The translations under genes were made by a program, and so were the position numbers. From the NCBI GenBank assembly GCA_002633005.1, contig NMRA01000015.1:1174218-1238217 (forward strand): DNA of 64,000 nucleotides. Direction: 5' to 3'. Below, in pieces: positions 7,421-61,682 of this stretch. The stretch is from Phoronis australis (lineage: Eukaryota > Animalia > Phoronida). The notes beneath the pieces are model-generated. The model had not been told where the DNA came from, ran no database searches, and saw nothing but the letters and a program-made list of their open reading frames with translations. Position 1 is the first letter of the stretch. Each line of letters starts with the position of its first letter.

Positions 7421-7503
7421 TCACTGTGGTGAAGTGGTTACAGCTGGAGTAGTCGGTGATGGGTTAGGTTTGTCGCCAGTCCCTACACTGGTGGCGATCC
7501 ACA
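7421..7503 (-). CDS. VAMP: VAMP terminal exon B: short T/P/S-rich luminal tail ([27 protein letters not shown])
   Basis: ttgccatttcag|TGTGG acceptor in phase 1; begins V-W like terminal exon A; open to TGA at 7423-7421. Confidence 0.8.
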
Positions 7504-10500
7504 CTGAAATGGCAAGAAAATCCTCAATCACATGTGACCAGGCATTGTGGGACACCTGCTTCACACACTGCAAAGGCAGAAGCTGGGAATTCACCCAACT
7601 TCTCTATCTTCAATAAATCACCATTTTCACACGATTAGAAGACGTTTATGATAAACCGTTCTACTCGGCTGTGAGAAGTTTGCTTCGTAAGTACTACTCA
7701 ACATGGTGCCGTGAACCTTCAACAAAACCAGCCAACATCAAAAGTCCCCAGCAAAACACAACTGAGAAGTAAAGACAACTTCACTCTCCCTTGATGTTAC
7801 CTTATCTGAACTTCAACAGAGAGCCTGAAATATATCAGGAGTCAAACAATTCCCACCAAATCAATAAATAATTCACTGATACATCCACCTTCCATAAAAG
7901 CTGTTGCAAGGTTATGCAGACCATTCTCAACAGCGCCGTGCATAAAGCCAAATATCAAACTACGAAGGTAAAAGCTGATACTTTCTTAAAGTAGAGTGGG
8001 ATTTGTGACCATTCGCCATTAATTGGGGCATATAAAAATTAGCAAAAGTAGAAAGGTACATTCATACCAAAACAAAGGTATATTCATACCAAAACAATGG
8101 CATCAGTAACATAACCAAATCTCATTTGATAAAAATTTTCGAGATGAAATCTCAAAAAATGCCATTTTTTTAAATTATCACTTCATTTTCGTTTTATGCA
8201 AATATTGATCTTTTTAATGAATAACATAAAAATTCCATTTAGATGCAAAAGATGAACATATTATGAACAATTCCTAATGTATTGTAGAGCAGTGCATAAA
8301 GTGTATTACCTGACAGTATCATCTGAATCCCATCAGCCATATCATGTTTCCAAGTTACCAAATTTGCACATTTTTGTATGGTCCTACATAACTAACATTG
8401 GACCTAGTGTTAAAAAGTTGACCTATAAATCTGACCATTCATAACTCCAGTACTTAAACTGGTCTACCTTACCCTTTTCCAAATAACATTTTCAGATAGG
8501 GTTCTCAGGAGTCATTTTGACTACGCAACTCCAGTTTGTTTCAAATTTGGAGGATGGCATATAAACAAAAACCTATAAGTATGGTTGCTTTTCAGGACAC
8601 CAGCTAACTACACCTGTTCACAACGAAAATTTCTTACCCTTTGCACTGAAACAGTAATTATCTCATAAGAATTAACAAAAGCAAAGCACACCACTAGGGC
8701 CCTCCCTAATTACACAACAACAGAACTCTCCTTTGTCCTAGATATAAGAAATGTGTTGTTTTCTGAATGGCCTTGTTTTGGAGTGCCAGACACATTTCCA
8801 TGTCGGAGGTGTATGGCCGTGAAAATATTCCCCGATTCAACTGCTTAAAAGTTTGGGAATTTAAATGGTATCTTCGAGAAAGGTGACTTTGTTAAGTTTA
8901 AAATTATCCGGAAATTTTGCTTTATCCACACGCTCTATGTTTTCTTGTCTTTGATTGATTTCGGGAAGGGGAAGAATTTATCATCACGCGTCCATGCATT
9001 TGTCCAGTTTATCTAACACACTCCCGTAGGACCTGCAGCCCACAGCACAGCAGTAATACTCACTGACAGATATTGCGGCGCTGTGGGTAAATACAGCGAG
9101 ATTCGAGAGTAGCTGTGTTATCTAGGACGACCCTATTGCAATGTGGCTACTTCGGTGCATCACAAACGACAAAACTACAAGAAATTCATCAGGTGTACTA
9201 ATACAAGTAGACTACCAACAACATTAAAATGAATTACTGTACAGCAAAGTACAGGCCTGTTCTATTGACAGCAGAACCTGCCTTCCAACTGTATCAATGT
9301 GTCAATACTTCAAGGTTGAAGCCAGCAGCTTACAGCAACGTTGTGCCACTTAGTTTTATACATGAACAGATCTAAGCCTTCTCACTGAGCCGACTTTACT
9401 GTACTCTAAAACAAATTGTAACACTTTCATACAATCTCAATAAAAGTGAATGGTTTTTAAGCCTAGGTATCACCTAGAACGGCGTAGTGTCAATCAAACA
9501 GAAGGACCAGAAGAGGTCAAACAGAAGGACCAGAAGAGCTCAAATAGAAGAATCCACTGGAGACAGATTCATGAAGTTATAAACCTTTGGGTCTTTTTAC
9601 AAACGTGACGTCGAAAGGACAAACAGACAGACAGACCGGGATGATGGTACTATACATCCACACAAGTGTGAACGTAAAAATTATTCTTATTTTTTTTTCA
9701 TTTTCAAAACATGCACTCCTTACCTTTCCAACTATTTAAGGACATATCAATTGAAACTTCAGTTAAAAAGTTTTTAAAGACACAGCGAACTAAGCAAAAA
9801 AAAGTGAGGAAATAGATCCTACTTTTACGATACTCATGAAAATGAAAAGAATACGATGATGTAGCAAATGTAGGGTGAAATGAGGGCACAACAAGGTGAC
9901 GACAAAATGAAATTAAATGAATTTATGCTCCTGGTCCCAGTAGCAAAAAAGAAACTAAAGTGGAAATCAAGACTCAAAAAAAAAAACAAATCGCAACAGC
10001 ATGTGAACTGTAGACTTAAACAGTCACAGCTAAACTACTTGCAGCAGAAAAGGGTGTGCAAAATTGAGTCAGCAACTAAATGCCACAACTTAAAGACTTG
10101 AAAAAGTAAGATGGCAGAAAATGACTCAAGAACACCAACACGCAAAATAATAATGACAACACAACCATGTACCCTGTCTACGCTCAAGCCTGGGCACCCG
10201 CTGGAGGGCCCTGGCCGGTCCCCTGGCCGGTCCCCTGGCCGGCCCCCGGGCCAGGCACCTGGCCAGCAGGGACAACGGGTTGCTGAGGTTGCCCAGGGGC
10301 AACGGCACCAGGCGGGTAGGCATTTGGCTGGTAGACAGCGGGTGCCGTCGTCGGTTCAGCTGAGGTTCCGAATTTCTGCCACAACCACACTGAATGAATG
10401 CATGGGAGAGAGAGAAAGTGGGGGTGTTAAGCATTACCCAAGACACCATTACACTCTTATGATATACTAAGGATGAAGTGACTGGATATGGTAATCACAA

Positions 10501-13500
10501 AACATGAAGGAATAAAGCTTTGAGTGTCCCATAGCACCAAGGCAAGCAATTGCTATAGGTTAGGAAAGTTACGCAAAATCACCAACAAACTGAACAGCTC
10601 CTAAACCACATAAAACCAACATTTTACTGCATTTGTTTTTTGCTTTAATACTTTCAAAAAATTATGTTGTGACAGTACGAGGAATGACAACATGTCTCAT
10701 GATGGGAGATGACAAAAGAATGAACAATGTCAATCAAGTTGCTATTGGAAACACGCTGATATGACGATAAGTGAAACACCTACAGCTGGTACACACACAC
10801 TTAAGTACAGCTAGTATGAAGACTACAATATTGTCATGAAGCTTGATTACACTTAAGTATAGCTAGTATGAAGACTACAATATTGTCATGAAGCTTGATT
10901 ACACTTAAGTATAGCTAGTATGAAGACTACAATATTGCCATGAAGCTTGATTACACTTCCATGTTGATACCAAGGAGCGTAGTAGTATAGGAGAGTTCAC
11001 TTCTGAGTTCGCTGTTACCGCTACTACTAGCGCCGCCAAGTGGTGAACAAGCTACGGTCAATCAGGAAGCGCCAAAACAATGGGGACGGACGCATTTTGC
11101 AGTGCGATAAATTGCATGAATTCATCCACGAAAACCCCAGACGTGTCATTTTGTAGGTTTCCTAAGGATCCAGAAAGGTAAGGATTATCTGTTATTCAAT
11201 AATATGATACATTGTCTTTCATTTTGTGTGTTCTGTTCACGGTTGTTAGACAAGTCGATCGCAGTCCCGGTGCCCGGCACTGTCTGTTGTCTGCAGTGTA
11301 GGCTAGACCTACTGGGCAGCCGGCGGAAGAGGACTATGATTAACGTACGATGTGATCGTCAGCTTTTTGGATACTTGCAGTCCATGTATTCCAAATCAAA
11401 ATGTCACTCTAACGATCGCAGGGATAATTTTAGGAAAACATTCCCATGGCCATGGGTGAATATGAATCGTGGTGACACGGCCATGGCACAATCACAGCCA
11501 CAGGCCACAGGGCCTTTTAAGTCTTTCATTAGTCAAGTCAGAGAATCTGTGGGTCTCGGTGAAAAGTTGTGCAGCCCTTAAAATATCCGTGGATCGACAT
11601 TTGAGTCCTAGTTTTTTTAGTTGACACCAAGACGCTTTTGTCTCTATCACAATCACAGTACGACAGGACTTCTGTAGTGTAGTTTAGTGTAGGCTACCAG
11701 TCTCTGTGAACCTGGTGAGTATGAGGTTTGTTCCTGAGTCTCTCATTGATTTCTGTTCAGGTGCAAGCACTGGGAGCCGACCTTATGAATAGAGTGCATC
11801 CTACTTGTCCAAGAACTGCAACTTATGCTCTCATCACTTCGAGGAGTCCATGTTGATGAATGAAGAACAAGCTGGTATTGAATGCAGTGCCCGAGCAGTA
11901 TTTGATGTCCCCAGTCCACCAAAAATGAAGACGTCAAAAAGTTCTACGGAAATTATGTTACAGCTGTGGAATAGGCTTTTTGCATTTCTGATTATCGTCT
12001 CACAAAGCAAGTACTGGAACATCACGTGTAGAAAGGACAATTAGTCAAAATCTGGTTTTCGTATTTTACTAAGGTTGATCAGATTGAAACATTTTATGAA
12101 TGGTTAGCCTGTGATTTGAAGAGAGCCAAAGTGAAACTGATGGGTCTTTTAGAGTCTGAATGGTGGGCTGACATTTTGTTAAACCCAAGCTATCCATATC
12201 ATTTTGCTTCTCAATGACACTGAAACACCTCTGTGAGTAAATTAGTTATCAGCTTCAACGCATTTCGTTGGCAAAAAGAGCTGTTGTTTTCTAGTGAATA
12301 GAGAGTGAGAAGGTTGGTTAGATTTTCTTGTTGTATTGGTGTATGTGTTGCCTATTTTGTACGTTTTTGGAGATTGTGATTAATTTAAGCTCCAGTTGTG
12401 GCTAAGTAACAAATATGATCTTGTGGTCTAGCTTTAGCTTACCTGAAATATTTACTGTTATTGATAATATGAACAGTGGGTATAGAAAATAAAAATTTTA
12501 GTTTTATCATCCATTAAAAGTCTTTTTAATTCAGTTTTGTATGAAGTTGTGTGGCTAGTGAATATTTTGATTGCTGTTCAGCACCTCTTAACTTTTTTGT
12601 CATGACATTTTGAGCTTGGACTGGTTATGGTGGGGATATACTCAATGTGGGGGGGGCTCGAATTCCCGACGATGTAGACCTTTTGCTAACAAGTGAGTGG
12701 GCGGACTAAAAAAAAAAACGGGGACCACCACTGTGAATTGCGCGTTTCCGTTTCTTTAGTGGACTTTTGTCCCATTTTCTCGGACTTTTTGTCTCGTTCA
12801 AGCCCCCCGAGCCCCCTGGGTGCGCGCGTGGGAGAGTGCAATCGAGTTTACCCTATGCTGGAATGTCCAAGAAATAATGGGATGTTCTAAAATTATATTA
12901 CGATTTTGTGGTAGTGATGAATTGCTTTCTTCTTCTTACATGTGTAACACCCACTACACCAAACAATTATTCACATTGTTAGTATCCTGGTGCATTGAAT
13001 AAGGAACACATGCGAAATTGGGTGGAGGTGAAACCAGCAGTGAGCTGGGAGCAACATGTTTGTCAATGGTCAGGGGAGCAACCAAAATTTATGACAATGG
13101 GAATGGCTCAACACCCATGTGGCATACCCCATTGGTTTTTACCTGTTTAGCACTCCTCCCATGTAACCCCCCTGGGAGATGGTCAACACCCATTTGGCGC
13201 CCACATGGTTTTTGCCTTGTACCCCCTTAGCTGTCACCTGTGGGGAATTACCCTCTGAACCCCCAGGAGCAATCATTCAAATTTTATTGTCCATGGAGGT
13301 ATGAACTGTTATAAGGAAAGATAATTTGCCTTGTTAAGAACTCAAACATGAAACAAAACCGTGATAGATTTTGAAGGGAGCTTCAAAAGAATAAAAACAA
13401 ATACACTTTAATATTGATTAAAATACACATTTTCATTCTCATTCGATTATAAGTGGATGTTAGTTTACGTATTCTAACCATTTTCAATCACACAGTAATT

Positions 13501-16500
13501 TTATTGCACGTTGAACGTCATTAAAGTATGAATTCATCAGTGTTTACATTGTTCGGACTGCGCTCCTAAGTAAGTATTGATTATTCACCGCTTGGAGCGC
13601 TAGTGTTTCGACCGGTAACCATTGCGGCGAATGGTAAAATGGCGGAGTGAACTCTCCTATACTCGTACACTCCTTGTTGATACCATACAACTGAACAGTT
13701 TGGTTAAGAACACTATTAAGCGTTTATTTCTGTTAACAAAGTTTTACAGTACCAAACATCAAGTTATTCCAATACACACAGTCCAACTTCAAGTGTTCAT
13801 ATGCTACTGTGGCAGAGAGAAACAGCTCTCAATTTTGTGAATTTACCTTGCCTAAGACTGGTAGATAGGCAATAGAGAAACCGAACATTCAGCGTTCGGT
13901 TTCATTATAGAGTGCCGTGCTGCTAACCAGTGTTTGTTGTGTCAAGAATTATAGAACCAGTTGGCAGCTTACAGATGCGGTGGACAAACAGAACGCATCC
14001 CTTCACACTCTTAAGTGATCACGACAAGACATACCTAAGCACTCGCATAGCATATGATCGATGCAGTATATTTTTACCAACTGAAATGTGGAGTTGGTGA
14101 ATTGATTTAGAAAATTGTTTTCAAACAGAAGCAATAAACTCTGACATTCTCACGGGGAACACTTGAAGAATGACATCCTGGAATTCAAGATATGTTTGTT
14201 ATCAACACAAGACAGACAGTAACAATCATTAGTGAACCAAATTAAAGTGCTCAATTACATAGAAACAAGCCATGTGATTGACAAAATCAAACAATGAAGG
14301 CTCACTGGAAATTTCCGAGAACAAGCCAACTCGTGAGCCCATATGAGAAATCTTTTTCAAATGTACGCTGGGGTAAATTCTGCAATAGCCACTTTCCAAA
14401 TATAGAGGGCTTGCTATCAGAAATTTCATGTAGTTCTACCCACAAACACATACGCACACCAACACTAGATAGATGACCCATGTCATCCCAAATGGGTTTG
14501 CTCTTGATTGTTCAAGAAAGTCAAGAAATATCCATATTAGAGATGCAGAAAGGAAATCTTAACATTCTGCTGTTGTGACAAACAAATAAAATACTCTTCT
14601 TTTCACAGAGCAACAAGCATTATGTTAGCTGTCAAGGGAAAACAGTGCAACTCCATTGCAGTGGTGCGTGAGTGCATGTTGTGTACCTTGGTGTTTAGAA
14701 TGGAAGAAAGTTGACTTACCAGCAATGATAACGACGATTAAGAGTACAATACCAATTATAATTAACCACATCTGAAAGTGCCAAGAAACCAACTCAAAAA
14801 ACTTAATACAGGTAGAACATAGACAACTCAGGTCAAGTATAAGGCGTGTGCAGAGATCTGATACTGTCCTGGGCTAGTTAACATCACCAGGCCACTAGCT
14901 TTTATTATTAAAATCCTGCAGCTAACTGTGAGCACAAGAACAGGCAAAGCGTTTACAGTTCTGGCTACTTATTGCCGTAACGGTCTCATTTTATAGTCAG
15001 GCAGAAAACGAGAGTGGTTATAATTTAGATTTTCTTTTCGTAACATCACTTGGAATTCTCACTTATCCTCGTGGTCCTGAATAGTATGTAATACCGTAGC
15101 CATCCAGGTTAACACCCACCCTCAAATTTGCAAATTTTCACTTTTGAACACCCATGCTCCACCTGGTGCCCACCCTCCATTAAGACAATTGAGACTCCTT
15201 TAAAAGTGCCAGACTCTATGTGAACGCCAGTCTCACAAGAACCTTGGCTTCCAAAACATCTCTAACACACTTAACTTTGGCAACAAAAAGTCACTCTCAG
15301 TGTCGCCTTTACGTATTCAGGCAGGGAAAGAACTTTTTAATGAAGCACACCTGTAATGGTTCTTTTGGCTCATGTACATTCCAATATTATCGAACTTGTG
15401 TGAAATAATATCGCAGAAGGCATTTGTGAGAGTGAGTCCACCATTCGGCTAAAAGCCCGTCCCTGATTTCTCAAACAAAATTTTAAGTGCCCCTGCCCTG
15501 CTTCATGGCCATCCCGATTAATTTTGTTGATTTCCCAATCTAAGCACTTCCTATTGTTAACCCAGATAAGCATGGCATTCTGATAATGAGAGGAAAACGT
15601 AAGACAAGCAGTTATTTCAAAACATTTTGCTTTAATGCTCTTACCAATCACAGTGCTCGGATACATTAAAAAAATTTTGGTTTATTTTCTAACCCAACAA
15701 CTTGCTGATCAAATCTCTGGACACGGGTATAAACATAAAAGTGAATGGACAAAAACTAAAAAAATTGAAAGAAAAAACTGCGACATCGACGTGTTATACA
15801 GGTTCAGGGCTAGGTCGTCATAAACTTACCGATTAGGACTATAACCACAACCCCGATAACCACGCCCAAAACAATCATCATCTGTAAAGTGTCAACTAGC
15901 GTGAAATGAAATGAACACACAAGTGTGCACCTTCGTGCACAGAATGAACACAGTTGTAAATGATATGTGTATAATACTTAATAATAACAATGAATAACCC
16001 TCAGAGGATACCAGCCGTGTTCTTTTCCCACGCTATTTCATCAACAAGGATTTTTTGTTGGAAAGCCATACATTTTATAGTATGGGTAGGGATTCTTGCC
16101 TGATTTTGGATGGTGTCATTGGTATGAACACCACACAAGGTTTACAACACCTTATGTGGGTTTCCACTAATAGATCGAATAGAGCTGAGGTGAAATTGTA
16201 TGATTCCAATCGGAAATGGGACAAAAGTGTCTATTAAAGATATGGCACTGGCTGTCCCTCTGAAAACAATTAGTGAAAAGTGTTTCAAATCATACAGTCA
16301 TAAAATATACAAATTTGCACATGTGAGCCCATAGGCATCAACAAAACAAGAGGCATTCAAGAGAAACCAAGACCGGCAAACATCCGTAAACACAAACAGG
16401 CAAACAGACGGACAGACAAACAGACACGCAGACGGTGAACTGAAGTGACCACAAGAGGGCACCACTTACCACCGGCCACAATGACCACCAAGCCAATCAC

Positions 16501-19500
16501 CACACCCATCATGATCATGCTCTGAAAACAACGTTAATAATATGCACAGGCCGAGGTCAAAGGTTAGTGCAAAGCAGGAGGGACAGACAGGCAAAGCTCC
16601 ACCCACATCTAGCTAAAGCTTGAGATCATACAGGGGTACAGCTCAACATCACTTGACTAGACAGGCCAAGCCCCGCCCATATCTAGCTGAAGCTCGAAAT
16701 CTTAAGGGGAGACAGCTTGGCAAGCCAGTAAAAGGGGTTCCGCAGTTTGAGAACCAGTTTTATCCACAGAATAACAGGAATAACAACTGGTTCTCGAAAT
16801 CCAGGACCTCTGGAAGTGACTATTGCGGACAGCTTCACGTTTGTCTGGAAGGGCTGCATTTTGTATAAACATGCAGATCAGTCAAACTGAAAATCTTTCA
16901 GTTTCAGGAGCACTTGCGACACCCTAAGTTCCACTGCATCAACCAGTAACTCACCCTGGTGTTCAGTCAAAGAACCCGGTTATTTTCATTAGAATGACTG
17001 TCACATTGCTTTCGGCACATGAAACAACTAAACCAAGAATTTCAACTTCTTGAGTTTTGTCTTCAGCCCTGATTCATCGGGGAACTGTCTTGAGTCCTGA
17101 CTTTAAGCTAAACATCAGTCAACGGTTGACTTAGCCAGCTTCATGAAATCAGACCAAGGCTAAACGCCAGAAAATCTGTCTACAATTTGAAGCCAAAAGA
17201 CAGAAATTCATAATCTGCTCTGGAGCAGACTAAAAGCCAAAGTCAAAAGATAAGAAATCAACAGTTGGCTATAGACTCTAGGAGAAACAGGCCACAGTTC
17301 CTTTCAGACCAGAAATAACTAATCTGTGTAAGGCTAAAGTTGAGACCCCTTATATCAGTAAGCAGTTGGATTTAACAGAAAGCATTTTTATATCAAAACT
17401 TGCCAAGAGGGACTAAAAATATTTGACCACATTGTTTTCATTTACAGCTAGCTGACAGTGCAATTTTGACAGTAAAGCTGATGAAACCCAAATCTCACAA
17501 TCCCAAAATATCCCAAGGGCTAGTTTCAACACAAGTAAGAAAAATAAGCAGTCAGAAGGACTTGGGAGGTCACAAAGCCACACAGGCAGACTTAATGCAG
17601 GTGAGAAAGAATTCTGACAAATCTGACAACTGCATCAAACCTTAATCAGATGACCCACAGCCGACTATTAGCACATAAATGACTTTAATGACTATTCATT
17701 TCCATACGCAGCCTACTGAGACACAACAGATTAAAGCCAGTTTGCACCGTGAAAAGCAAATGCACGGCACAGATTTAAAACGCTAAATCATGCAAAAGAC
17801 TGCGAAATAACATAGAGATCACAAACCTCCAAAAAGACATACTCAAGAGCTAGAAACCATTGAACTTCTTTGTTAAAAATATTTATTTCGCCCAACAACT
17901 TGTTTGAAAAGGTTCGTAATGAATAAAACCAGAAGAGAACTCGTTTATCAGTTGATGCATCTAGTAGTCAAATTCAGCAAATATGGCGAAAAACAGGACA
18001 AACCAACACCAACAGAGTGACTCCACCAAGAGCAAAGCCTACCGCACACTGTACAACTCGACTCTATTCAACGACTCAATTCAATGGATAGTTCCGACAA
18101 ACACACCTAGGTCATGCCCACAAGTCCACCAGATATGCAGGTTATCTATTGTAGAATTGCAACAGATACTTTTTGTTGTGTTCCTAATATTTCAGTTCTA
18201 TTACCAAATGTAGCTGTACAATCACAAAGGGCCCTAGTGGAAAGTTAACCATTACACGCAGGCAGCAGTATATATATCCACAATATGAAGTCTTCGAGTC
18301 CACGCAGATTACTAAACCATTCGCATAAATTGGGCTCCACTCAAATAACAGCTCAATTCAAACTATCAGGAACCAAGGTTGTTACTCAATACTGTTGCAT
18401 TACGCTGCACTTAAAAAAAGTTTGGTGACACAATAAGGTGCACTCTTAAGTTATTTCATAATACAGCTGACAATGAAGAAAAACTGTGTTCACACGATTA
18501 GTCAGTCTAAAGTTTTGTTGGTTGCCACTTGTGATCTGCAGTACATCCACAGTCTGAGTGTCCCAAGCTCATTCGAAAAACCAAGTTTCTGCTTTTGTTA
18601 GCTACAAATATTTGTGGGACAAAGATGGAGGATGATCGCAACATTTACGATTCCCTGCAGTCTGACTGGTTTGAATTCACAGCTTGATCAAAATGTCGGA
18701 ATTATCCATTGTTGAGATGTAGGATGAGGCACACAATGCTGTCTGATAGCAACTAATGCTCTGTTGCCTCGTCAAATATCAGAGGTCATGTAATTCACAA
18801 GATTATAGTCCTAACAGCAGCTGAGATGAGTTATGCCACACAGTATGCGGCAAGCTTTGGAGGATTGAGCCATTACAGCAAAAGGCTAAAAGCAAATCTC
18901 ACCCCAGTCATAAGTTATGTGACGCCACTTTGTTTAGCAGTACCCGAGCTGCACAAGCGAATATCACACATTTCGTTGACTCGGTAAAAACCACTTCTCG
19001 CACAAAAAATGAAACTTGACGGCTGACAACTAAATTTGAGACTGTTCACTGGCAATAAACCAATGCTTCCATGGGTGGATTGTTGTCTTCCATTTGGGAA
19101 CATAGCGCGAACATTTCAGAAACCACTTAAAGCCACAAGCAGCGAAAAGTACAAAGATGTCATTTTAGTACCTTAACCATATGGAGGTTTTTTGGCAAAT
19201 TGAAGTTGTCACTCTATGACTCAAAATAGAATTCACCGAATGTTTCTAAAGCTTAATTCACTGCTGCAAACTTGACTCACTCTTGTATCAGAATTGAGTT
19301 GACCTAATTATCACTACATGTGGCTCTAAGTGGATAATAAATAAAAACTACAAACCAAATTGAAGAAAAAAGGGGACACAATTCCTAAGAGGCTCGCAAA
19401 TTTAACGCAGCTTTACCAAGAACACGAGTGAACCGCAACTGTGCAACGTACTCAAGTCTGGCGTGTTGGGGTTAGCGAGTGCAACCGAAAGTCGAATTTA

Positions 19501-22500
19501 AGCATAGAACACCAAATAATCCCAATCCCCAGGACAACATAGAATTTTTGGACCTTGGTATTATTCCACCACATTTTCCTCTTGAGTCGGCTGGATGTAT
19601 TAACAAATTGTGCGGCGCCTAATTCAAGCTGGCCTATTGGGAACAAGAAGAGGACGAAGCAAGATTTTGTGAGGTTAACAATTGAAGGGTAAAAGCAGGT
19701 CAACAGGTGACCCTGAGCTGAAAAAGGGTTCAACGATGGCGTTCGGCAGAGAACTGTTACAGGACAAAAATGTTCTTTGTTCGAGTGCTGTTTACTAGAG
19801 GCAAACGGGTTATGTTCATGTTCAAAAAAAAAACTGTTCTGTTATGCAAACACAACCTTTTACTATTTAAATACAACAGAACAGTCAACACGTTGTCATA
19901 AGTTTCAGCCAAATGCATCAGTGAACCCTTTCCTATGACCATACAATACAGGCACACCATGTTGGGACCAGCCACTGTGTTAGTGGGCAGCTTTTGTGGA
20001 AGCAACTCACAACAAACAACTAGAGCTAACAAATGAGGGCGCTACCTTGCAGTTCTTCCACCACATCTTTCGCTTTAGTTTCCCGGCGCTCGCCTCAAAC
20101 TGCGAAGCTCCAGCCTGTAACGCATCTAGACAGCACAAAACAGTGTTTAGCTGATGACCAGATCATAGTATGGCGCAACACATCTAGCACACTACTAACT
20201 CCAGCCTAACATTACTACATTATTACAAGACAATACTTCCCCACCCATAGCACACACAAATAATAATGCATGGCAAGGTTGTTATGTCCAGAATGTCCCC
20301 CCCCCCCTAAGAGATCAAAATGCTTACAGTGAGTAAAGAAACACTTGAATGCATTACGTTACTCAAATTTAATGAAAATAAGATTAAACACCTTGTTAGA
20401 TTTCTAGCAGATTCTAAAACCCGTTTTTCATATGGAGCATGTTTGAAGTAAAGATTCTTTGTTCAAATTAACATAAATCCTGTTTTTGAGCTTTGAATTG
20501 CCAGGTATCTAAATTACAAAAATTGATTAACAGAAACGCATCAACAGATTCATAATGTAAATGTGATCAGCCACTGGTTTCAAAATACACAGAGACTGGT
20601 TACAAATCTGGTCAAATCTTGGCCTCATTACCTGCCCTGTCGTCCAACTCGGACAGTTTCTGATCCCTCTCCAACACTTTGTCCACGTTGACCCTCATAA
20701 TGTCCACCACCTGTCCAGTAGAAAGCACTGTTTAGAATTGGCCATCACCAACCACAATTCAAATGCATAGAAAGCTTAGGGGGCAAAATACTCTAAATTT
20801 TGTGAATTTTGAATGACAACTTCAAAACGAGATGTACAGAAATGCAAGTGCAGTACAAACCAAAAATAATCGTACATAACATATGTTTCCCATCATGCCA
20901 AGTCGTCATTTCAGTTGCTGTGTAATTGAACTCCACTTCCACTCAAATATCACGACAGAGAACACTGCATGCACTCAAGTCATCATGATGGGGTCTCCTG
21001 CATCATTCTGCCCGATTGTTTATGGTGTGCACTTTAGCTATTTGTTTAAGCCTGCTTTAAACTAGAAGTAAGTTTTTTAACTTCTTGGTTTTGATCCAAG
21101 TTTCAAAAGATAGAAGCAAAACTATGCGGGTGAGGTTCGAATTAAACTTCTGCCCCTGCAGTCATTGAAACACACATTTTGTCTTCAACATTAGGTAAGC
21201 ATCTAACTTTAATAACCAGCCACACAGTGTTGTCGAAGAAGGCACTTGTCATTCAAGTGCCACTCCAGGGGTACTGGGGAGTTCTGACTGGCCACAAGTT
21301 GGCAGGGGCTCAGTACCGAAGACGAAAATGCTGAAAGAATAAAAATTACCACTAGGGTGGACAACGGCAACCGGATCTGTCTGAATAAGTGTACCTTCGA
21401 GACCACCATACGCAAGACTAGATAAAAATTGATCAAACACTTGGCAAGCTCAACAGAAACTTTGTTATTTCGTGTGCTGCGATTACTCAATTGACAAGTA
21501 GTCTTGCATAATGTTTGGTAGCCTCATTCTCTGAGGTTTAGAGAAAATCTCCTTAAGTTTCCTGAAGTTCTGTCTCTAGCTTTACCTCGTCCACTTGGGC
21601 CTGTGTCTGTTGAAGTCGTTTGCTGGGCTGAGCCTTGACTGGGGCGGGTGGTGGGCCACCTGTGCCACCTTGAAGTCCGTCAGACCTGTAATTACAGGTA
21701 AGAACAGGTAAGACAAACAACTAATGACTTTGGACCAAGAATAGGCTCAAGCTGACAACACGTTTTTCTGCTATTTAGCAGGGATGCCACTCAAGACTCG
21801 TCAGTAGAATTTTTTTTCAATTTCAAAAACTACACATTATAAAATAGACTGAAGATTGATGAAATTGTTTACAAATTGAGGAATTAGACTAATTAATTCA
21901 ACAAAGCTTCTCCGCACGTTTTAAAGGACAACAGCATTAGAATGTGCATTTGTCATTGCTAATGGATGTAATATAGGTTCCTCTGCTCATGGTGACGTCT
22001 TTAAACCACGGGCAAACTTGGCAAATGAACTGTTGTCAGACAAGATAGCACAGATTCAGCGGTTTAAACCGGAAAACCAGCAAACTTGAAAGACAAGGAA
22101 AAAAGCTTGTTTTGTGAAATGAAAATAGGTGAAACTTGAGGAGCCAAGTTTCCAAGGAGCGTGAAAGCCACCAGGCACTATTCAGTATCCAAAAGGGATT
22201 TGCCTCTTTGCGTAAAATATCACAAATTTAGGACACGATATGGCCCACAAGTCAATTTCATTTGTTTTCATAAAAGATGAGCAGTACCAATTAATGTCAT
22301 TGTTCTCTTTACGCTCTATTCCATAGCAGTGCTTTGGCAAATTGAATGCATTCACAGAAATGCTAGCAACTTTTGAAACATACAAACGATTAATTTTGGC
22401 AATCATTTTGGTGCGACTTTATCAAGAGCAATTCCGAGATAGTCAATAACCTATAATGCCCCAATATTACAGTTCCACGAATGAGTGAGCTTGGGCTACA

Positions 22501-25500
22501 CATTCACAACTATAGACTACATCCTTCTCTGTGTATCTCTGAGTATTTTGGACATCCATGTTGCAATGAAAGAACAACTGTTTGATAGCTGTTTAAAAAT
22601 AACTTGATGATCCACTAAAAATGAACAATCATGGCAGACAGATTAATTACATAAAAACAATATCATGTTTTTGTTAATCAAATACTGAGATTAAGTCATT
22701 CTAAACAAAGAGTACTGGTCACTTATTCTAACGACTCTATAGATCAGAAACCAACATGTAGAATTTTAATAACCCGCAGTAAAAATAACACACTGATGTG
22801 ATACAAACCTGGTCCACCTGCTAATAATTATATGCAAATGAGTAAAAAGTGAAAAACAAATCATACCAGTACAAACTCATATATACACAAAAAATACACT
22901 CAAATAAGATCTAATAGGGCCAAGTTCAGGGACAAGCACACACTGACACAGAGTTGTGTACATTACAAGACCTAATGTATCCTTCTCAGACAAAAATAGA
23001 ACTGCACACAATTAGGGTAAAAATAATTCCTTTATGCAGAATACTCAAGATTTTCTGTCTCCTGAGCTTCACGCAAGAGGTCTCACTTCAAACTTACAGA
23101 GCATATCATTCAGACTCATTCCTTATTTTTTTTTTCAGAAAAAAAAAAATCCAGAAGTAACACAAGTTTTTATCTGTCACATGACAAACGTACTGTTTAT
23201 GATATTTACTAATTCTAAACTTAATTTTTGCATCAGCCTGAATGTAATCCCTGAACGTGACCAAATTATAATTCATTGTGCATTCAAAACTATCACTCAA
23301 AAACAAAAAGCATAAGATAAACCAGGAGACGTCTAGTGTCTCAGGCAGTGGTTACTATGGATACTTACAAGGGGCCATCAGGCCCCTGTGAGCCCCCTGC
23401 CTCAGAGGCGGGCTGGTCATCGCTAGGAGCAGACCTGAACATCGACAAGGGGTGAAGTCGATCAGACAAGAAATGACAACAGGTAAAGAAACGAGTAGAA
23501 AAATATAAAAAAATAAGCGTATGGGCATGCCAAATGACACCGAGAGCGGCAATTTTTGAAGCCACATCAATTACTTTCCAAGAGATTTTCATTACACAGG
23601 GCCAGGTGGAAAATTCGGAAGTTTTCTGCACAAATTTGACTTCAATTCAAGTATAACCACATGTATAGTTTCAATTCCACACCCACTGGTAATGGAATCT
23701 CCATGTGTTTGGTTTGGCGTCATGGCTCGTTATGCACATTTTCCATTTTTCACATTTCTTGGTTAAAATACACAGACACAAAGTGGCCTCTGTACAGTAA
23801 TGTAGACGGGTATCCCACGCCGTCGACCACGTGTAGCCACTGTACGCGTGACAGTAAATAGTAGAAAACGTGAACAATAAAAGCCTGCCATACAGCATAC
23901 TTGATCCTGAACAGAGCGCCACTTAGTGTGTGTGTAAAGAAGATTAAACTAGATATTAAATATGCATGCATCAAATATCCAATTGCAGCACACATACGGA
24001 GGAGGTACAGGGCTAGGCTCCATAATAACTCTGAAATGTAACAGTCGACTCATGAATGGTCAAAATATCCCAAGTCTACCCCAAACTAAAACACACAATG
24101 CAAAGCAGAGGTGGCCATGCAAGGCCCTCACTAAGTTTAGGAGAAGGAAACTGTGACTTCCAAGACAGAATGCAGCACTCGACGCTTAGCCTAACGCCAA
24201 GCCGCATTTGGCAACCTTTTAACTTTTTGTTATAATTTAAGCATGTGTTTGATGTGTGCTGACTGCTGTGGTAGGTGGCAAATACACTGATTTCACAAAA
24301 TAACCGGAACAGTTGTGAGCCAAAGATATTAATTCTAGGAAAATTCTTAGTCATTTAAAGTTTTAAAGCCAACGCAAACTTTGAAACAAATTTCGGGGTA
24401 ATTATTGTCTGACTGATGCTTGCAGCGGAGACTTTGTGGCGACTTGGGAGTTTTCTCAGGTCGCCAAATACAATCTGAGGTTGCATTGAGTGCTAGAATG
24501 TGTAAATTTTCTCCACCCCGCATAAATATTTGTTTTAAAAGGGAAAAGAGGCCAATATCTGACTCCAAAATCAAGGCAGCGAGAGCCTAGCAGGTTTTTA
24601 ATTTAGTTCTGAAAAAAAGAGGATCTAACAATCCAGAGGCCATGAAATTGAATGGTAATGTGACAATTTAAAGTCGTCTTTACATGAGAGACAGCTGAGC
24701 CAGCGCAGCTAACACAGAACAGTTGTACTCGATCAGTTGCTAAAGCCTCACCTGTACCACTAAACACAACTGGGGCAGGGCGGAAATGGATCATCTTTCA
24801 TTGCACTAGCACAATAGCGCAATAGCGTATATTGGGGTGATCAGCTGGTATTTCACATGGTTTGGACATTGGCAAATGTTTATGCCAGCATGCCCTGACA
24901 GTCTTTGTGTAAGTGACTCATGCTGATCCAGTTTGTGATCTAATGTTGTGTAAATGCAACTTAAGTGAATCAAGTCGCTCCGCTCCGTGACAACTGACAC
25001 GGTGACATCAGTCTACCGTGTAAAAGCGGCTTTCAAAATCCATGCAACACTGGGTCTACCCTCAGCATTAAATGATTCACCAATGCCAGCCAGTTACACA
25101 AAATGAGAACGAAATGCCTGGCTGTAAAATATTCATGAACCATATGTTTCAAGATAAATACAACAAAAATCAATTTCAACAGGTACTTCCCCTTACTATC
25201 AACCATGCAAATTAACAGGTTTTGATAATTAACAAACCAACATTTAATGCAAAGAGTTATTAATTAAATTCCTCCAATAATTAAAAAGTATCTACAAATA
25301 TTTCTGTTTTCTTGAAGTAGTAAATGGTGATGAATTTCAAGAGTTAACTCCCCTGAATACAGATTAAGAGTTCCCTATCACTTCATCAGAGGTCTGTGAG
25401 CACCAACAATTCTCATGGCTTTTGATTTGCATAGCTTAGAAGTTCCTGACTTGATATTCAGGAATAAGTGCCAGATGAACCATTTTCTCACTTCAACTTT

Positions 25501-31500: not shown

Positions 31501-33003
31501 GCATTTTGTTCAGTTTCCCAGTTTGGCTTAAGATCCACACGCGCCAACTTGTAGTCCCAGAAGCTTGAAAAAGTTGGTGAAGAAACATTACTAAAAATTT
31601 CTCAGTCAAGGGAACATTTTTATTTTTTCTGTATCCATTTCCAACAGTACACGAAAATCGGAACAAAACTTTCACCTGAACACACACATGTTGCAACACA
31701 ACATACTTATAGTTGTGCAACTGACTTATGCAGTCACGCACAATGTCTGTTACCGAAGCAGTTACAAGTAGCACGTCGTGACCAGAATCAAGAGAATCAA
31801 AATTGTCTACTTACATGGACAAGAAATCATTTATGGGTTTCCAAAAAAAACTGACAGTTCGCTATTCCTAGAACCCTAACCAGCCAGCTAACTGTGAGAA
31901 GACAAACATCAGAACTGATACAGGTAAAAAACATTGTAATAAACATCATTCTCCAGCTTTTGCAACACAAAAAAGTCTGTCATCAACTTGAAAATAGTAC
32001 GCTTGTGTCACACGCACATACCACAAGCTAAACTTTCTGCATCAACATTCGGTAGATGATAACTTCACTGAAGCTATATCTGCTCCCGAATTCGGTTTTC
32101 TCATGTGTGAAATCAGTTCTGATAATTTGTTGTAACATGTGTGGAAACCTTGTGGAAGTAGAACACCTAACAGGCAAACAGGCATATGATCAATCCACAA
32201 ACTAACCGCAGAACTGAAGAATGGCAATTTTTAGCACTGATAAATAATATGGTTTACTCAAGTAATTGTGTAGTTTTTGATGATACTAATTTTTTATTAG
32301 ATTTTATTTGATCAGTTTTCACCAATACCAGTCCAATGTTGCATATTTATAGTTCATAAGGCTTCACATCAAGGCTATTAAGATCTAGGCACTTCAACCA
32401 CTCTGGTGGAGCCCACCCAGAAGCCAGACTAGCAGGGGCTACTTGTTGAGGTCAAGCTCAGTGCACAAAAAGTCATGAAATGACAAGACAACCCCACTTG
32501 CAGAGCCTCGTCTAAAGCAATAACTAACTGCCAGTTCTTTTGCAGCCCTGAAATCACCTTATGGAATAAATTGAGACCCATTTCATAACAGTAAGGGTCT
32601 AAACCAAAAGTTGATTTTTTTGACGGCAGGCAGGTTCATCTGCTCCATTCACTAGCAGTTGCATTGACTACCAGTACCAGGCAGCCACTGTCCAATGATG
32701 GTTCATATGCTACCTTCCTCCTGGTCAGCGGATGCAATTCTCGCGAATTACTTAGTTACTAAAACATAACACGGCCAATAATAAACACAGTTTGGAATAT
32801 ACCACCTATATACAGAAGGTATGAGTAACTCCGAGACAGTGAATTTACTTTTCTGATCGCTCGATCATCCGATCGATCGAAATTGTGGTGACTGAAGGTT
32901 TGACGTACATTCTGAAATAATACAAAATGTACTTAAGAACAGTTTCAAAGTACGACCGAAGCAAACGATCTAATTAATCATCACAAAACTTTCATACTCA
33001 CAT
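7421..33003 (-). CDS. VAMP: Synaptobrevin / vesicle-associated membrane protein (VAMP1/2/3-type R-SNARE), whole gene span with alternative exons
   Basis: Spliced exons give ...[13 protein letters not shown]|[26 protein letters not shown]|[27 protein letters not shown]|TM, nearly identical to canonical synaptobrevin. The split start codon (AT|G) and 52-nt TM exon match vertebrate VAMP gene structure as I recall it. Confidence 0.97.
10184..10389 (-). CDS. VAMP: VAMP terminal exon A: long P/G/Q-rich luminal tail ([15 protein letters not shown]...[18 protein letters not shown])
   Basis: cattcag|TGTGG acceptor in phase 1, in frame with every TM exon; matches ORF 10184..10390; GC-rich coding-like island. 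Confidence 0.85.
10797..10958. repeat. 52-bp tandem repeat, ~3 copies
   Basis: Unit ACACTTAAGTATAGCTAGTATGAAGACTACAATATTGTCATGAAGCTTGATT. Confidence 0.92.
10971..13676 (+). mobile_element. Non-autonomous P-element-superfamily DNA transposon (~2.7 kb) in a VAMP intron
   Basis: Imperfect ~33-bp TIRs (CAAGGAGcGTAgtAGTATAGGAGAGTTCACTtC versus the reverse complement at ~13644-13676). 7-bp TSD TTGATAC at 10964-10970 and 13677-13683. Internal THAP remnant. Confidence 0.88.
11080..11930 (+). pseudogene. Decayed THAP-domain transposase 5' end (exon 11080-11177; second exon from 11761 with frameshifts)
   Basis: [33 protein letters not shown]|[33 protein letters not shown] carries the C2CH THAP signature (CxxxxC, FP, W, LCxxHF, AVP). 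No catalytic domain ORF seen. Confidence 0.8.
14720..14771 (-). CDS. VAMP: VAMP transmembrane exon variant 3 ([17 protein letters not shown])
   Basis: tttcag|ATG...GCTG|gtaagt, 52 nt, phase 0-1. Confidence 0.88.
15830..15881 (-). CDS. VAMP: VAMP transmembrane exon variant 2 ([17 protein letters not shown])
   Basis: ttacag|ATG...ATCG|gtaagt, 52 nt, phase 0-1; closest to the canonical MMIILGV. Confidence 0.9.
16470..16521 (-). CDS. VAMP: VAMP transmembrane exon variant 1 ([17 protein letters not shown])
   Basis: tttcag|AGC...GGTG|gtaagt, 52 nt, phase 0-1. Confidence 0.85.
16735..16810. mobile_element. Miniature hairpin element, same family as 46957-47030
   Basis: TTTGAGAACCAGTT-tatccacagaataacaggaata-AACTGGTTCTCGAA. 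Confidence 0.6.
19554..19633 (-). CDS. VAMP: VAMP SNARE C-terminal exon, variant B ([27 protein letters not shown]), duplicate of variant A
   Basis: ttcttgttcccaatag|GC...AAG|gtccaa. Same 80-nt length and phase as A, 14/27 aa identical, no stops. Donor is weak. Confidence 0.8.
20046..20125 (-). CDS. VAMP: VAMP SNARE C-terminal exon, variant A ([27 protein letters not shown])
   Basis: tctag|AT...AAG|gtagc, 80 nt, phase 1-0, canonical sequence. Confidence 0.95.
20632..20710 (-). CDS. VAMP: VAMP exon: SNARE N-terminal half with zero-layer Arg ([26 protein letters not shown])
   Basis: gacag|GTG...GCAG|gtaatg, 79 nt, canonical sequence. Confidence 0.97.
21586..21685 (-). CDS. VAMP: VAMP exon: Pro/Gly-rich N-terminus and start of SNARE motif ([33 protein letters not shown])
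   Basis: ttacag|G...GAG|gtaaag, 100 nt, conserved [11 protein letters not shown]. Confidence 0.95.
23369..23434 (-). CDS. VAMP: VAMP optional 66-nt N-terminal cassette exon (M)[22 protein letters not shown]
   Basis: ttcag|GTCTGCT...CCCCTT|gtaagt; phase 2-2, so frame-neutral; MSA start typical of synaptobrevins. Confidence 0.8.
26447..26602. repeat. ~33-bp degenerate tandem repeat, ~4 copies
   Basis: Unit CATTCAGGTAAAGTTGAGCAGAGACTCACTGAT. Confidence 0.75.
26669..27069. mobile_element. MITE, PIF/Harbinger-like, CTG TSD
   Basis: ~40-bp imperfect TIR GGCCCGGTCTCcAATC..TACTCGAAACG(g)AACTCGAAA; CTG at 26666-68 and 27070-72; internal ACTCGAA/TTCGAGT motifs. Confidence 0.8.
31815..31816 (-). CDS. 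VAMP: VAMP candidate alternative first exon 1B (AT of the split ATG)
   Basis: Minus strand ttgtccAT|gtaagt: consensus donor with the same AT| geometry as 1A. Confidence 0.4.
33002..33003 (-). CDS. VAMP: VAMP first exon 1A, coding part (AT of the split ATG)
   Basis: Minus strand ctaaaaaAT|gtgagt next to the shared promoter region; both candidate downstream exons begin with the G that completes ATG. Confidence 0.75.
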
Positions 33004-33340
33004 TTTTTAGTATGTGCTTTTGAGAGAAATCCCACAAATGAATGCCGTCGAATTTCGCACCAGTAAAAACAAATATGGCGATGAGATCATTCACATCCGG
33101 GTATGTGTGGAAAAAACGGAAGCAACACTTCATTGTTGATATCGGTTAAAAGGTGGCGCACTCACAGCAGCTCGCGCCATCTATTGTAAATAGTGGCCAC
33201 GTGACTCGGCAACAGGTCGGCTGAATACATAGCAACCACAACACTCGCGTGTGTAAGATCGATCCATTGGGGATGTCTAAATGGATTAGTTAAGTAGACT
33301 ACTGCAGGGTTGTTGTGCTGTGATTGTTCAGTAAACAGGT
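33004..33340. promoter_or_regulatory. Probable bidirectional promoter for VAMP (-) and EFCAB6-like (+), including a likely non-coding first exon of the latter (donor near 33338)
   Basis: Start codons are only about 570 bp apart. YY1-like AAATATGGCG (33071), ETS-like CACATCCGG (~33092), E-box GGCCACGTGAC (~33195), RFX X-box half site CATAGCAAC (~33228). Confidence 0.6.
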
Positions 33341-42500: not shown

Positions 42501-45500
42501 AACTAGGTAGTGACATAATGACACTGATTAAGATCTGACATTTATTATTTTCAGAATGGTATCCCGTTGTGAGAAGCACGCTGATGGGAATGTTAACTAT
42601 GTTGAGTTCTTGGAGAAACTTGGTATTGACGTCAAACCAGGCGACGTGATTGGTTTAAGCACACAGATCCATGCCTTGAGCGAAGCCATGGAGAATGAAC
42701 GCTCAGCAGATCTGGCTATAAGGTAACTTTCATGCAAACTATCAACATTAATCCTGAACTTCATACTTATGATAGGAGCTGTTCTCGTATTATTTTCTAT
42801 ATGTCAGACAGAAACTCTTGGTGTAAACACAGCTTTTTTCTAACATGTTTTAAGATAGATATTACAAGAACTTCCAGTTTCCTTCTTGACTGTAGTGATA
42901 AACAGGTCAGAATTACAATTTAAAATAAAGCGAAGAGTGCACAAAATACAGTTCAATGTCTTTGTTAAAGTTGAATCTCGTTTTTATCTTCTTCTAGTGT
43001 CTTCTAATGCATCATTCTGTTTGAGTATTTAATTGTAGTAAAATAATTGGATAGCAAAATGGAGGTTGGGTGACATTTTCATCATTATGGCTGTACAAAC
43101 ATCCCTTTCATATGGAAAATTTGTTTAATTTGTTTTTCAGGCAGCACAGAAATAAAGAGCTGATATTAAATCGCACTGACACAATGAGTCCAGATGAAGT
43201 GATAGTGAGGCTGCGGGACAGGATGTCCCAGCATTCAATGGGAATTAGAAAGGCGTTCCTGTTTTATGCGCGTAACAAGAATGGGAAATTGTACAAGAAG
43301 CCCTTTAGACAGGTAGGATGTGTGCTGAATGTAATCATATTTTTATTTTTGTTGACATTTTTGTCTGGACTTGGGGGTTTTGATGATAGTAGTGACGTGC
43401 TATGCAGCCATGGTGTGAGCTTTGTTGCACCTTCAAAGTGGTTGTACTTTAGTTGAGTTGAAATAAATGGTGCTCTGGATTCTCTTGAACAAACTTTTAC
43501 AGACCACAAGAAACTTTCTGACAAAATGGAGTTTCAGGTGTCAGCTGCAAAATTATGATCAACTTAGTCTGAAGTAGTTCAGGGTGTTGAAATTAAAAGA
43601 GATATAGATATTGAAAAGCGTAACCAATAGATTTTGTCTGGTGAAGAAAGAGGGTATGCCTTCATATTGTTGGTCATCTACTTGTTGTCTCTTGATGTTT
43701 ATTTTCTTAATATTAAACTGCAAATTCAATGTTTCAGATTATGGCAGACCATGGAATACATCTGTCAGATGATAAATTTGACGAACTCTGCACCACACTT
43801 GGATTTGTAAATGGCTCTATGACCTATACTGATTTTGTGGCCCACTTTGATAATCCTCGTAGGGAAGATAGAGCAGAAGAGACCGTCCGCACTTGCAACC
43901 ATCGTGTCAATCCAATACGTGGGGATGAAGTGGGTATGACTGCTGAACAAGTGGCCAGTAAACTACAGAGCAAGCTAAGAGAAGGATTTGAGGTGTGTTG
44001 ATTCAGGTTGATCTCTTTGTATCATGACAGGTGTCTTCTAATGAAGCGTCCATACTTGTCCCAGTGTTTGTCGCTTATAATCATATGCGCATATATTAAA
44101 CAGATGGTCTTTTTAATTACTTGTGGTAAAGTTCATTTAAATTCAAACACGTACTTATCTGATAATTCCGATATATCAGGTTCGATACAACTTATGATAT
44201 TGGTAGTTATATTTTGTTGTAAAAATTGTCATCTAGACAAGTGGTGTGAGATACAAAAAGCAACTAGTGACTCAAATTGAGAAAGTTACCATCTGGCAGA
44301 GTTGTATTGAGGTCTGACATATTGGCAAAAATCTAGCATTTTAATGTATTGGTGCTGAGATGTTTACGGGATTTAATAACAATATATGTTCCACTCTGAT
44401 TGACTTAATAAAAATATCATTTGTCAATTCCCTGAGTAGTTGTGAACTTAGGACTTGAATTGTGGTTTTTATACATCCAAGAACTGACAATTAAGATATT
44501 CAAACAGTCAACTGATTTCACTAAATAAATACTGACCGTGTTGCTTTTTGTCTGTTCAGAACCTGCGTGGTGCCTTCTACAAGTTCGACGACAATCACAA
44601 AGGCATTCTGACCAAGTCTAAGTTCCGTCGGCTCTTGGATGCATTCATGTTCATCATGTCCAATCAGGAGTTTGAGCGGCTTTGTAAGATGATGGGCATC
44701 GACAAATCAACGCGTATCAGCTACCTGGACTTTATCAATGCCTTTGAAATGCGAGACTCTGCAGAAGGTTTTAAGTGGATATCAGATCACAAGTAAGTTT
44801 TCATTTTTTGTCATAATTTGTCTGTTTTTTTGAAATACGTTGTGTCGTGCCATGCGTGTGAACATGGATGGAGTTCTTGAAAAGGTGCTGTTTTTCAGTT
44901 GTTTATTTATTTTTCACATAGTATAGCTTTAAGGAATACGATGCCTGCTGTAAAATATCATATAAGATTGAAGTGGGTAACTGTTATCTTTAAGCCATGT
45001 AGCTTATAAGAAAATCGTTAAGGAATTTAGTATTATTAAATGTTTTATCTATTGTCAAAGTGATACAGGGTTTTTTCTTCTCTTACCACTAATTCTATAT
45101 TATCATTCCCTATCTCTTCTAGGTACAATGAGGTGAAGCCAGTGCCCCCTATGAGCGCTGAGCATGTGCACAAGGTACTGTGCGAGAAGACCCACCGCCA
45201 GTGGAAGGACCTGTCTACAGCCTTCATCACTATGGATGGCAACCAACGAGGAAAAATTACCAAGAGGAACCTCCGTGAGGTTCTCAATAAGTTCCTCATT
45301 CCTGTCACGAAGGAAGAATTTGCTAAACTATGGGCCTTGTGAGTACTCAAGTTATTTTTAACTTAAAAGTCATATTTCTAGTGCGATACCGAATTGCTCA
45401 TGGTTACTGCACCAATACTGTAGCTTTCTGCTTTTTCTCATTGATAACGGCCATGGCTAATTTTGCAAACTTCATTCTTGTGGTGTTGGTTTGTGATCCA

Positions 45501-55002: not shown

Positions 55003-55185
55003 GATCTTGTGATATTTTGCATCAGTCTTTCATTCTGGATATTGTTCCTAAAACATTTGCCAATTCAGTTAGTATTCTTTGATACAAGGTATTTTTAAAC
55101 TTCATGTCGATTTTAATCAAAGTGCTTTATGCTTTAAAACATTCTCGAGCTTTATGTTGTCCAGAATTATGTTTGTTTTATTTTN

Positions 55186-55750
55186 TAGAACAAAGTGATG
55201 TCAAATCCTTTACTTGCTTTGTTTGATTCATTTGAAAATTCATTCTGAAGTGCAAAATTTCTTTACACTTTTTATTTCTGTTCTTTCAGATGTCACCCGG
55301 AATAAATAGCGCCAGTTTCTATGATGTCTTGGCACGAGTGCAGAAAAATGTCTTGCTGCACTGGAAAGAGATGAGACGGAGGTTCCGTTCCATCGACTGC
55401 GACGGCGTTGGCGTTGTAAGCCCACTGCAGTTCCGGAAAGTTCTCAAGGAGTTTAGTATCAACCTGTCTGAGGATGAGTTCTTCCACCTGATGTCGTTTT
55501 ATGACAAAAAGTTGGTGGGAAAAATAAGCTACAATGATTTCATTGGGGCGTTCTTGAAAAAATCGTAAGATCTTGTGATATTTTGCATCAGTCTTTCATT
55601 CTGGATATTGTTCCTAAAACATTTGCCAATTCAGTTAGTATTCTTTGATACAAGGTATTTTTAAACTTCATGTCGATTTTAATCAAAGTGCTTTATGCTT
55701 TAAAACATTCTTGAGCTTTATGTTGTCTAGAATTATGTTCGTTTTAATTT
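55186..55750 (+). repeat. 566-bp tandem copy of 54620-55184, including the last EFCAB6 exon (55290-55568); probably an assembly/haplotype overlap
   Basis: The copies are separated by a single N at 55185 and differ only at a few positions near their 3' ends. Confidence 0.85.

Positions 55751-61651: not shown

Positions 61652-61682
<31 letters not shown>

Follow-up and report, generated by a model that had tools for sequence, protein, structure and literature searches.

This study concerns a stretch of 64,000 nucleotides (nt) of the phoronid Phoronis australis (contig NMRA01000015.1, positions 1,174,218 to 1,238,217; hereafter called the window), which carries a synaptobrevin/VAMP gene on its minus strand, extending from about 33000 to below 6000. 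The new element in this gene is a pair of exons, A (20046..20125) and B (19554..19633), which both encode residues 68–94 of the protein, the C-terminal half of the SNARE motif together with the juxtamembrane linker. Exon A is the canonical and major form and B is its diverged duplicate. Our analysis indicates that B is likely a maintained, mutually exclusive exon that is spliced instead of A in about 2% of the junction reads. With a probability of about 0.6, we suggest that B encodes a fusion-competent but more loosely clamped v-SNARE that would serve a minority cell type or release route, a function predicted from its sequence.

Both exons are 80 nt long, are bounded by AG and GT, have phase 1-0 and are separated by an intron of 412 nt; 44 of 80 nt and 14 of 27 residues are identical between them. 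The minus strand of the window contains 88 open candidates of 80 nt that are bounded by AG and by GT or GC; of these, A scores 141 against itself (BLOSUM62) and B scores 82, followed by a next best score of 0. As only A and B score against A, B can be regarded as a real duplicate, and the window contains no third copy. With the Pfam Synaptobrevin profile (PF00957, cut-off 26.4 bits), the exon upstream of the pair, E4 (20632..20710, minus strand as all exons of the gene, encoding SNARE residues 42–67), reaches 28.2 bits and A 34 bits, and B alone lies just under the cut-off with 26.1 bits (E=7.7e-6). The best matches of B among solved structures are synaptobrevins, and its alignment to residues 70–94 of 1sfc_A fixes the residue numbering. 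The peptide of exon A is identical in three fetched proteins (P0007, P0008 and P0011) and resembles those of named proteins from molluscs, annelids, nemerteans, flatworms and a priapulid, which makes a spiralian origin of the gene probable.

In detail, B carries 13 substitutions relative to A among its 27 residues (D68G, A69Q, Q71E, A72L, S75A, E78V, A79N, S80T, A81S, G82S, K83R, K91N and C93T) and retains L70, A74, Q76, F77 and L84 as well as the KRKMWW juxtamembrane linker. The zero-layer Arg is located in E4, an exon common to both forms. A sequence-only reading of this DNA had described the pair with the same coordinates, lengths, phase and translations and with a gap of about 410 nt; all of this was reproduced, its use of VAMP2 numbering is confirmed by the 1sfc_A alignment, and L70, A74, F77, L84 and the KRKxWW motif were again seen to be kept. 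The seven residue changes which it named are all real, but the list was incomplete, lacking S75A, A79N, S80T, G82S, K83R and K91N.

RNA evidence was obtained from three raw runs deposited under the same species label (X2, X3 and X4, about 18–19% of the reads of each run) and from a contig set (X1), which were aligned to the gene; read counts in the form x/y/z refer to X2/X3/X4. A splice joint was listed only if it had at least three reads, and 15 of 28 joints across the gene are listed. E4 is joined to A in 428 reads (75/104/249) and to B in 8 reads (0/1/7), so that B accounts for 8/436 or 1.8%; the values of the single runs X2, X3 and X4 are 0/75, 1/105 and 7/256 (0%, 1.0% and 2.7%). The joint between E4 and B has canonical ends, 7 distinct read starts in X4 and 64–65 letters on the short side, and its reads are therefore not misplaced reads of A. 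At the donor of B, loose ends corresponding to the start of T3 (14720..14771), the major transmembrane (TM) exon, were found in 4 reads of X2 and 4 reads of X4. Joints of E4 with A, E4 with B, A with T3 and B with T3 were thus all seen, and both exons join the same upstream and downstream partners.

These results agree with the earlier proposal that A and B are duplicates which are used alternatively, for which the junctions 20632>19633 and 19554 to each TM exon had been named as a check; the former was found in 8 reads and, of the latter, that with T3 in 4+4. No joint from A to B is listed in X2–X4, where at least three reads are needed and B is rare, nor does any of the 15 listed joints connect E4 with a TM exon by skipping both A and B. 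Strict mutual exclusion agrees with these data, which provide a weak test of it since B is rare and a joint requires three reads. B does not occur in the X1 contigs, which show the path from A through T3 to the last exon, L2 (6000..7503).

Homologues of B were searched for in several ways. A homologue search with B plus its read-through yielded no candidate orthologue among proteins of 105–2000 residues, a search of representatives gave 10 matches (8 synaptobrevin-like proteins, none of them B, and 2 repetitive unrelated proteins), and a search with the A4 profile returned nothing B-like among the best 120 of 3244 matches. One protein, P0124, was considered as an orthologue of B and rejected, as it equals the canonical octocoral VAMP segment. 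For a survey of the substitutions, the best 120 of 1089 matches, the best 120 of 3244 (A4 profile) and 10 of 10 (representatives) were taken; 229 of the 232 fetched proteins provided 43 distinct segments, a set selected by similarity to A or the A4 profile. For 7 of the 13 substitutions, the residue of B was also found within these 43 segments (Q69, A75, T80, S81, S82, R83 and N91, with S81 in one segment), and these seven substitutions need therefore not be disruptive, since they occur in ordinary synaptobrevins of other animals. G68, E71, L72, V78, N79 and T93 were found in none of the segments. The c-Syb of Drosophila may share Q69 and E71 with B.

Several observations bear on the question whether B is under selection. 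The divergence between A and B at silent sites is saturated (pS 0.92), compared with a pN of 0.32, and 8 of the 11 degenerate codons that encode the same residue in both exons differ silently. Neutral decay was simulated by letting A change only silently and B freely, with A as the ancestor and without insertions or deletions; seven divergences were used, with 20,000 runs for each. The observed combination (absence of a stop, 14 or more of 26 residues retained and 8 or more of 11 silent differences) occurred with a probability of at most 0.0006. A test on a 9-residue core, picked after the data had been seen, also gave P=0.0006, and layer conservation alone is a weak indicator (4 of 5 layers kept, P=0.21). 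In addition, both alleles seen in B (at 19593 and 19611) are silent third-position changes, where 46 of 234 possible point changes are silent; two sites, however, are few.

Taken together, B is under coding constraint, and the earlier suggestion that it reflects selection rather than decay is supported by the pS and pN values, the simulation and the silent alleles. The low use of about 2%, the weak donor, the six residues unseen elsewhere and the failure of the above searches to find an orthologue would also fit an exon that was once functional, is now decaying and is spliced only by leak. Such a history is nevertheless improbable, given that length, frame and both splice sites are intact at saturated silent divergence and that two silent segregating alleles would be expected by chance with a probability of about 0.04 (46/234 squared), a figure that rests on two sites.

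What the B isoform does can be predicted from mammalian work. In VAMP2, D64, D65 and D68 bind the central helix of complexin (PMC4611016), and the complexin accessory helix contacts the membrane-proximal end (PMC7116205). According to a further study, Q76 and F77, the latter being layer +6, stabilise and anchor the Munc18-1 template complex, and changes in layers beyond +6 weaken C-terminal zippering and leave the template unaffected (PMC6320071). B loses D68 and E78, places a Ser at layer +7, has a lower helix propensity and is remodelled in the membrane-proximal region that the accessory helix contacts in VAMP2. The helix cost of residues 68–84 amounts to 7.48 for B and 6.09 for A, which puts B near the top of the range of 4.99–7.88 found in the 43 homologue segments.

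The B isoform would accordingly be expected, in our proposal, to be a full-length v-SNARE that still zippers. It should assemble because L70, A74, F77, L84, the Munc18 anchors Q76/F77 and KRKMWW are kept, and its clamping and C-terminal zippering would be weaker because D68 and E78 are lost, a Ser occupies layer +7 and helix propensity is lower. Its most likely place would be in a minority of cell types or in constitutive or spontaneous release, a role that in Drosophila is taken by a second gene, c-Syb, beside n-Syb. The weaker complexin binding or altered zippering, which the earlier reading had also suggested, would rest on one of the three complexin-contact aspartates and from mammalian mutants. 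Nothing in the analysis links B to the clostridial toxins, and the Q76-F77 pair is unchanged.

Alternatively, B might be a real and constrained exon whose protein works about like A, the difference lying in the site of expression or in other partners such as retrieval adaptors, alpha-SNAP or palmitoylation at residue 93, and not in complexin binding or zippering. The core layers are indeed kept, Q69, A75, T80, S81, S82, R83 and N91 each occur in synaptobrevins of other animals, and overexpressed Drosophila c-Syb rescues n-Syb mutants (PMC8377282), so that functional differences between the two forms may be mild. However, 13 changes in 27 residues are many for this segment, and the six residues that are absent from the 43 segments, chosen as these were for likeness to A or the A4 profile, do not fit easily with equivalence; we consider this explanation rather unlikely.

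Several further points weigh against a loosely clamped B isoform with a role of its own. Two of the three complexin aspartates remain in the exon common to both forms, and the effect of B may be small, as 7 of its 13 substitutions occur in ordinary synaptobrevins. The searches described above found no orthologue of B; the closest among the matches listed share 17 of 27 residues with it and are a canonical octocoral VAMP, which has 19 in common with A, and an unnamed protein that has 17 in common with A as well. B is seldom used, and the difference between its share in X4 (7/256) and that in the two other runs (1/180) lacks significance (Fisher p=0.15). No single read is shown to span E4, B and T3, X2 contains reads from B to T3 without any read from E4 to B, and the intron between A and B is partly retained, with a depth of up to about 7. 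Because of this retention and of the X2 reads, some of the B reads are probably unproductive. Finally, A too splices to T3, in 269 of 320 reads, and the pairing of B with T3 is therefore uninformative on function.

Inclusion of both A and B shifts the frame and leads to a stop within B, at 5 codons from its start and 65 nt upstream of its donor, and skipping both likewise shifts the frame. A candidate branch point lies 42 nt upstream of B, and the intron between the two exons is too long for them to exclude each other sterically. Pairing of docking and selector RNA was not found either: the best duplexes in the introns are at shuffle level (10, 11 and 4 of 30 shuffles do as well) and the repeat listing contains nothing distinctive. 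As steric and RNA-pairing exclusion are not supported, the reading frame remains as the predicted mechanism, by which messages with A and B would stop early and be removed by nonsense-mediated mRNA decay (NMD), as would generally be expected of such messages. A would be the default exon and B a weak alternative, which may be kept rare with the help of its donor, whose match to the consensus (4 of 9 positions, compared with 5 for A and 7–8 for the TM exons) is poorer than that of any other correctly placed donor that was scored.

The same stop, lying 65 nt before a junction, raises the possibility that B is mainly a poison or decoy exon acting through RNA: messages that include both A and B, or that retain the A-B intron, would stop early and be degraded, thereby tuning the dose of synaptobrevin, and the clean joints from E4 to B would be a by-product. 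The depth in the A-B intron, compared with almost none in the E4-A intron, and the X2 reads from B to T3 without E4-B reads would be compatible with it. A poison exon, however, requires no conservation of amino acids in the frame used when A is skipped, yet B shows such conservation, and in X4 the spliced E4-B reads (7) exceed the intron depth beside B (3.8). We therefore regard a mainly regulatory B as having a low probability.

Its weak donor could also allow B to be used, additionally or mainly, as a terminal exon. In-frame read-through (19452..19553) adds 33 codons followed by a stop and encodes a modestly hydrophobic segment, a possible but unproven alternative anchor. With these codons the Pfam match reaches into the TM part, up to profile position 85 of 89, and its score rises by 6.5 bits (26.1 to 32.6); reads are present just past the donor (depth 5.6/0/1.9). 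This depth, however, equals the general intron background and splicing of B to T3 is seen; moreover, the best 17-residue hydropathy is 1.87, compared with 2.6–3.4 for T1–T3, an AATAAA is first met about 1.5 kb further on, and no protein with such an extension was found in the homologue and representative searches. A B with its own membrane anchor is thus quite improbable, and a maintained exon spliced in place of A is the reading we follow below. The exon lies within a stop-free frame of 129 codons (19452–19841, minus strand) that includes 69 intronic codons upstream, which is probably due to chance.

Upstream of the pair, the 3' end of the first exon (33002..33031) provides the AT of a split start codon; its donor was checked, and it is joined straight to E3 in 107/90/384 reads, as seen from the matching loose ends past 21685. 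E3 (21586..21685) encodes the proline-rich N-terminus and the start of the SNARE helix and is joined to E4 in 93/73/338 reads. Between the first exon and E3, an open frame with splice sites predicts an optional N-terminal exon, E2 (23369..23434, 66 nt, phase 2-2), for which no joint is listed and whose bin depth is 0/0.44/1.14, indicating that it is skipped in these reads. E4 is present as a single copy in the window.

Downstream of the pair, the gene offers three TM exons of 52 nt each, all of which are used. T1 (16470..16521, 52 nt, phase 0-1) is joined to A in 0/2/12 reads. T2 (15830..15881), of the MM-type seen in proteins named VAMP1/2, is joined to A in 0/2/35 reads and continues to L1 in 0/0/29. 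T3, of the MW-type seen in proteins named VAMP3, is joined to A in 50/52/167 reads and to L2 in 47/64/192; a clear fourth TM exon was not seen in the window. The choice of TM exon differs between the runs, T1 and T2 making up 47 of 214 reads from the donor of A in X4 against 4 of 106 in X2 and X3 (p=8e-6). The introns 3' of exon A (14021–20033) carry low depth throughout, and those between E4 and A, E3 and E4, and E2 and E3 (20126–23275) are nearly empty; the donor of A seems to be spliced late, while the TM exon is being chosen.

The luminal tails vary as well. L1 (10173..10389) is an optional exon rich in Pro, Gly and Gln, with a stop about 11 nt before its donor; it was seen in X4 only, with 29 reads from T2 and 37 on to L2 (0/0/37). 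A micro-exon of 24 nt (7801..7824), which by its translation encodes a short basic tail ending in a stop, is entered from T3 in 5/7/0 reads and left to L2 in 6/4/0, and hence is used in X2 and X3 and not in X4. Its tail is reminiscent of a short-tailed VAMP1 variant which reportedly carries a mitochondrial signal. L2 provides a short luminal tail and a long 3' untranslated region; it is supported by joints at 7503 and by high depth, and its end lies beyond the stretch that was mapped.

Isoform models of chiton, oyster and snail, as well as priapulid and spider models, show the same choice between MM-type and MW-type TM exons, the SNARE helix being unchanged; P0080 and P0107, both from molluscs, look like frame-shifted double inclusions. 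Since the TM cassette is visible in public isoform models, it is old (protostome), already annotated and not the new part of the gene.

Some further features of the window should be mentioned. A spliced antisense transcript lies on the plus strand in the intron between T3 and L1, at about 11100–13400, with a joint 11175>11759 in 28/11/189 reads; by motif, its peptides presumably resemble a THAP zinc finger, and two short pieces of them gave no match in Pfam. Short repeats at 16746–16778, located within a 27-nt inverted repeat, and at 12755–12792 draw reads by the hundred from other parts of the transcriptome. The neighbouring genes encode a multi-EF-hand protein (43055–55568, plus strand) and a ubiquitin-specific protease (59925–63443, minus strand; Pfam UCH, 54.5 bits). 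An exact tandem duplicate of 526 nt covers an EF-hand exon region (54620–55145 and 55186–55711, with an N at 55185 between them) and is most likely an assembly artefact and not an exon duplication.

In the synaptobrevins of animals, residues 68–94 hardly vary, and they power the final step of fusion. With 13 of 27 of them changed and the N-terminal half held constant, B represents a natural test of the surfaces on which complexin clamping, Munc18 templating and final zippering depend, a test the weight of which is limited by its origin from one species, a use of about 2% in the samples and a function deduced from sequence. Our literature searches, in whose coverage subscription papers are mostly not contained, found no paper on a duplicated SNARE-motif exon in a synaptobrevin, and a passage on SNARE splicing in PMC3123573 names only C-terminal VAMP1 variants and tomosyn as cases of R-SNARE splicing. 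Those VAMP1 variants, like the TM exons of the mollusc, priapulid and spider models, are alternative anchor or tail exons comparable to T1/T2/T3, L1, the micro-exon and L2, but alter the anchor or tail and not the SNARE helix.

The swap of a C-terminal half depends on the intron in codon 68. In 13 of the 232 fetched proteins the VAMP part begins exactly at codon 68; none of them has a vertebrate-type signature and one carries an octocoral segment. In 83 of the 232 the sequence is unbroken across codon 68 between non-VAMP flanks, and 81 of these have vertebrate-type signatures. These counts support, indirectly, the view that the intron may be old and was lost in vertebrates, as well as the earlier statement that it is absent from vertebrate VAMP2. 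Six arthropod models (P0130-P0133, P0135 and P0136) contain two tandem copies of the E4-type exon (residues 42–67) which were fused by annotation and which differ little in spiders and a woodlouse but more strongly in thrips. This pair resembles the one described here in belonging to the same gene family, in having the codon-68 intron as one edge and in arising by duplication inside the SNARE motif; there, however, the N-terminal and central half is doubled, whereas here it is the C-terminal half. As the E4-type exon is single in the present gene, the two duplications are independent.

The closest known counterpart is SNAP-25, the exons 5a and 5b of which arose by tandem duplication and yield mutually exclusive isoforms in vertebrates (PMC2581893) that differ by 9 residues (PMC3104942). 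In both genes a tandem-duplicated exon of a core exocytic SNARE gives two alternative isoforms, which are mutually exclusive in SNAP-25 and probably so here, and A and B show the corresponding structure and splicing; the pair is a duplicated SNARE exon of the SNAP-25a/b kind, here in synaptobrevin. SNAP-25, however, is a Q-SNARE whose isoforms are both abundant and whose function has been shown in mice, whereas synaptobrevin is an R-SNARE in which 13 of 27 residues differ, the late-zippering half is swapped along with the membrane linker and B contributes about 2%. In Drosophila (n-Syb and c-Syb; PMC8377282) and in vertebrates (VAMP2 and VAMP3), two versions of a secretory v-SNARE likewise exist in one animal, there serving synaptic and general traffic, but these are separate genes, whereas here the variants are spliced from one.

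Tentatively, one gene might thus provide a combinatorial set of v-SNAREs, made up of two helix halves, three anchors and several tails, in which B would be the complexin-uncoupled and weakly zippering member for a dedicated release mode. If so, this would constitute an independent way of splitting regulated from constitutive exocytosis, beside the duplication of the other half in arthropods and the gene duplications of flies and vertebrates. The comparison suggests that exon duplication is the means by which animals with a single synaptobrevin gene diversify it, with different halves doubled in different lineages, whereas flies and vertebrates use extra genes.

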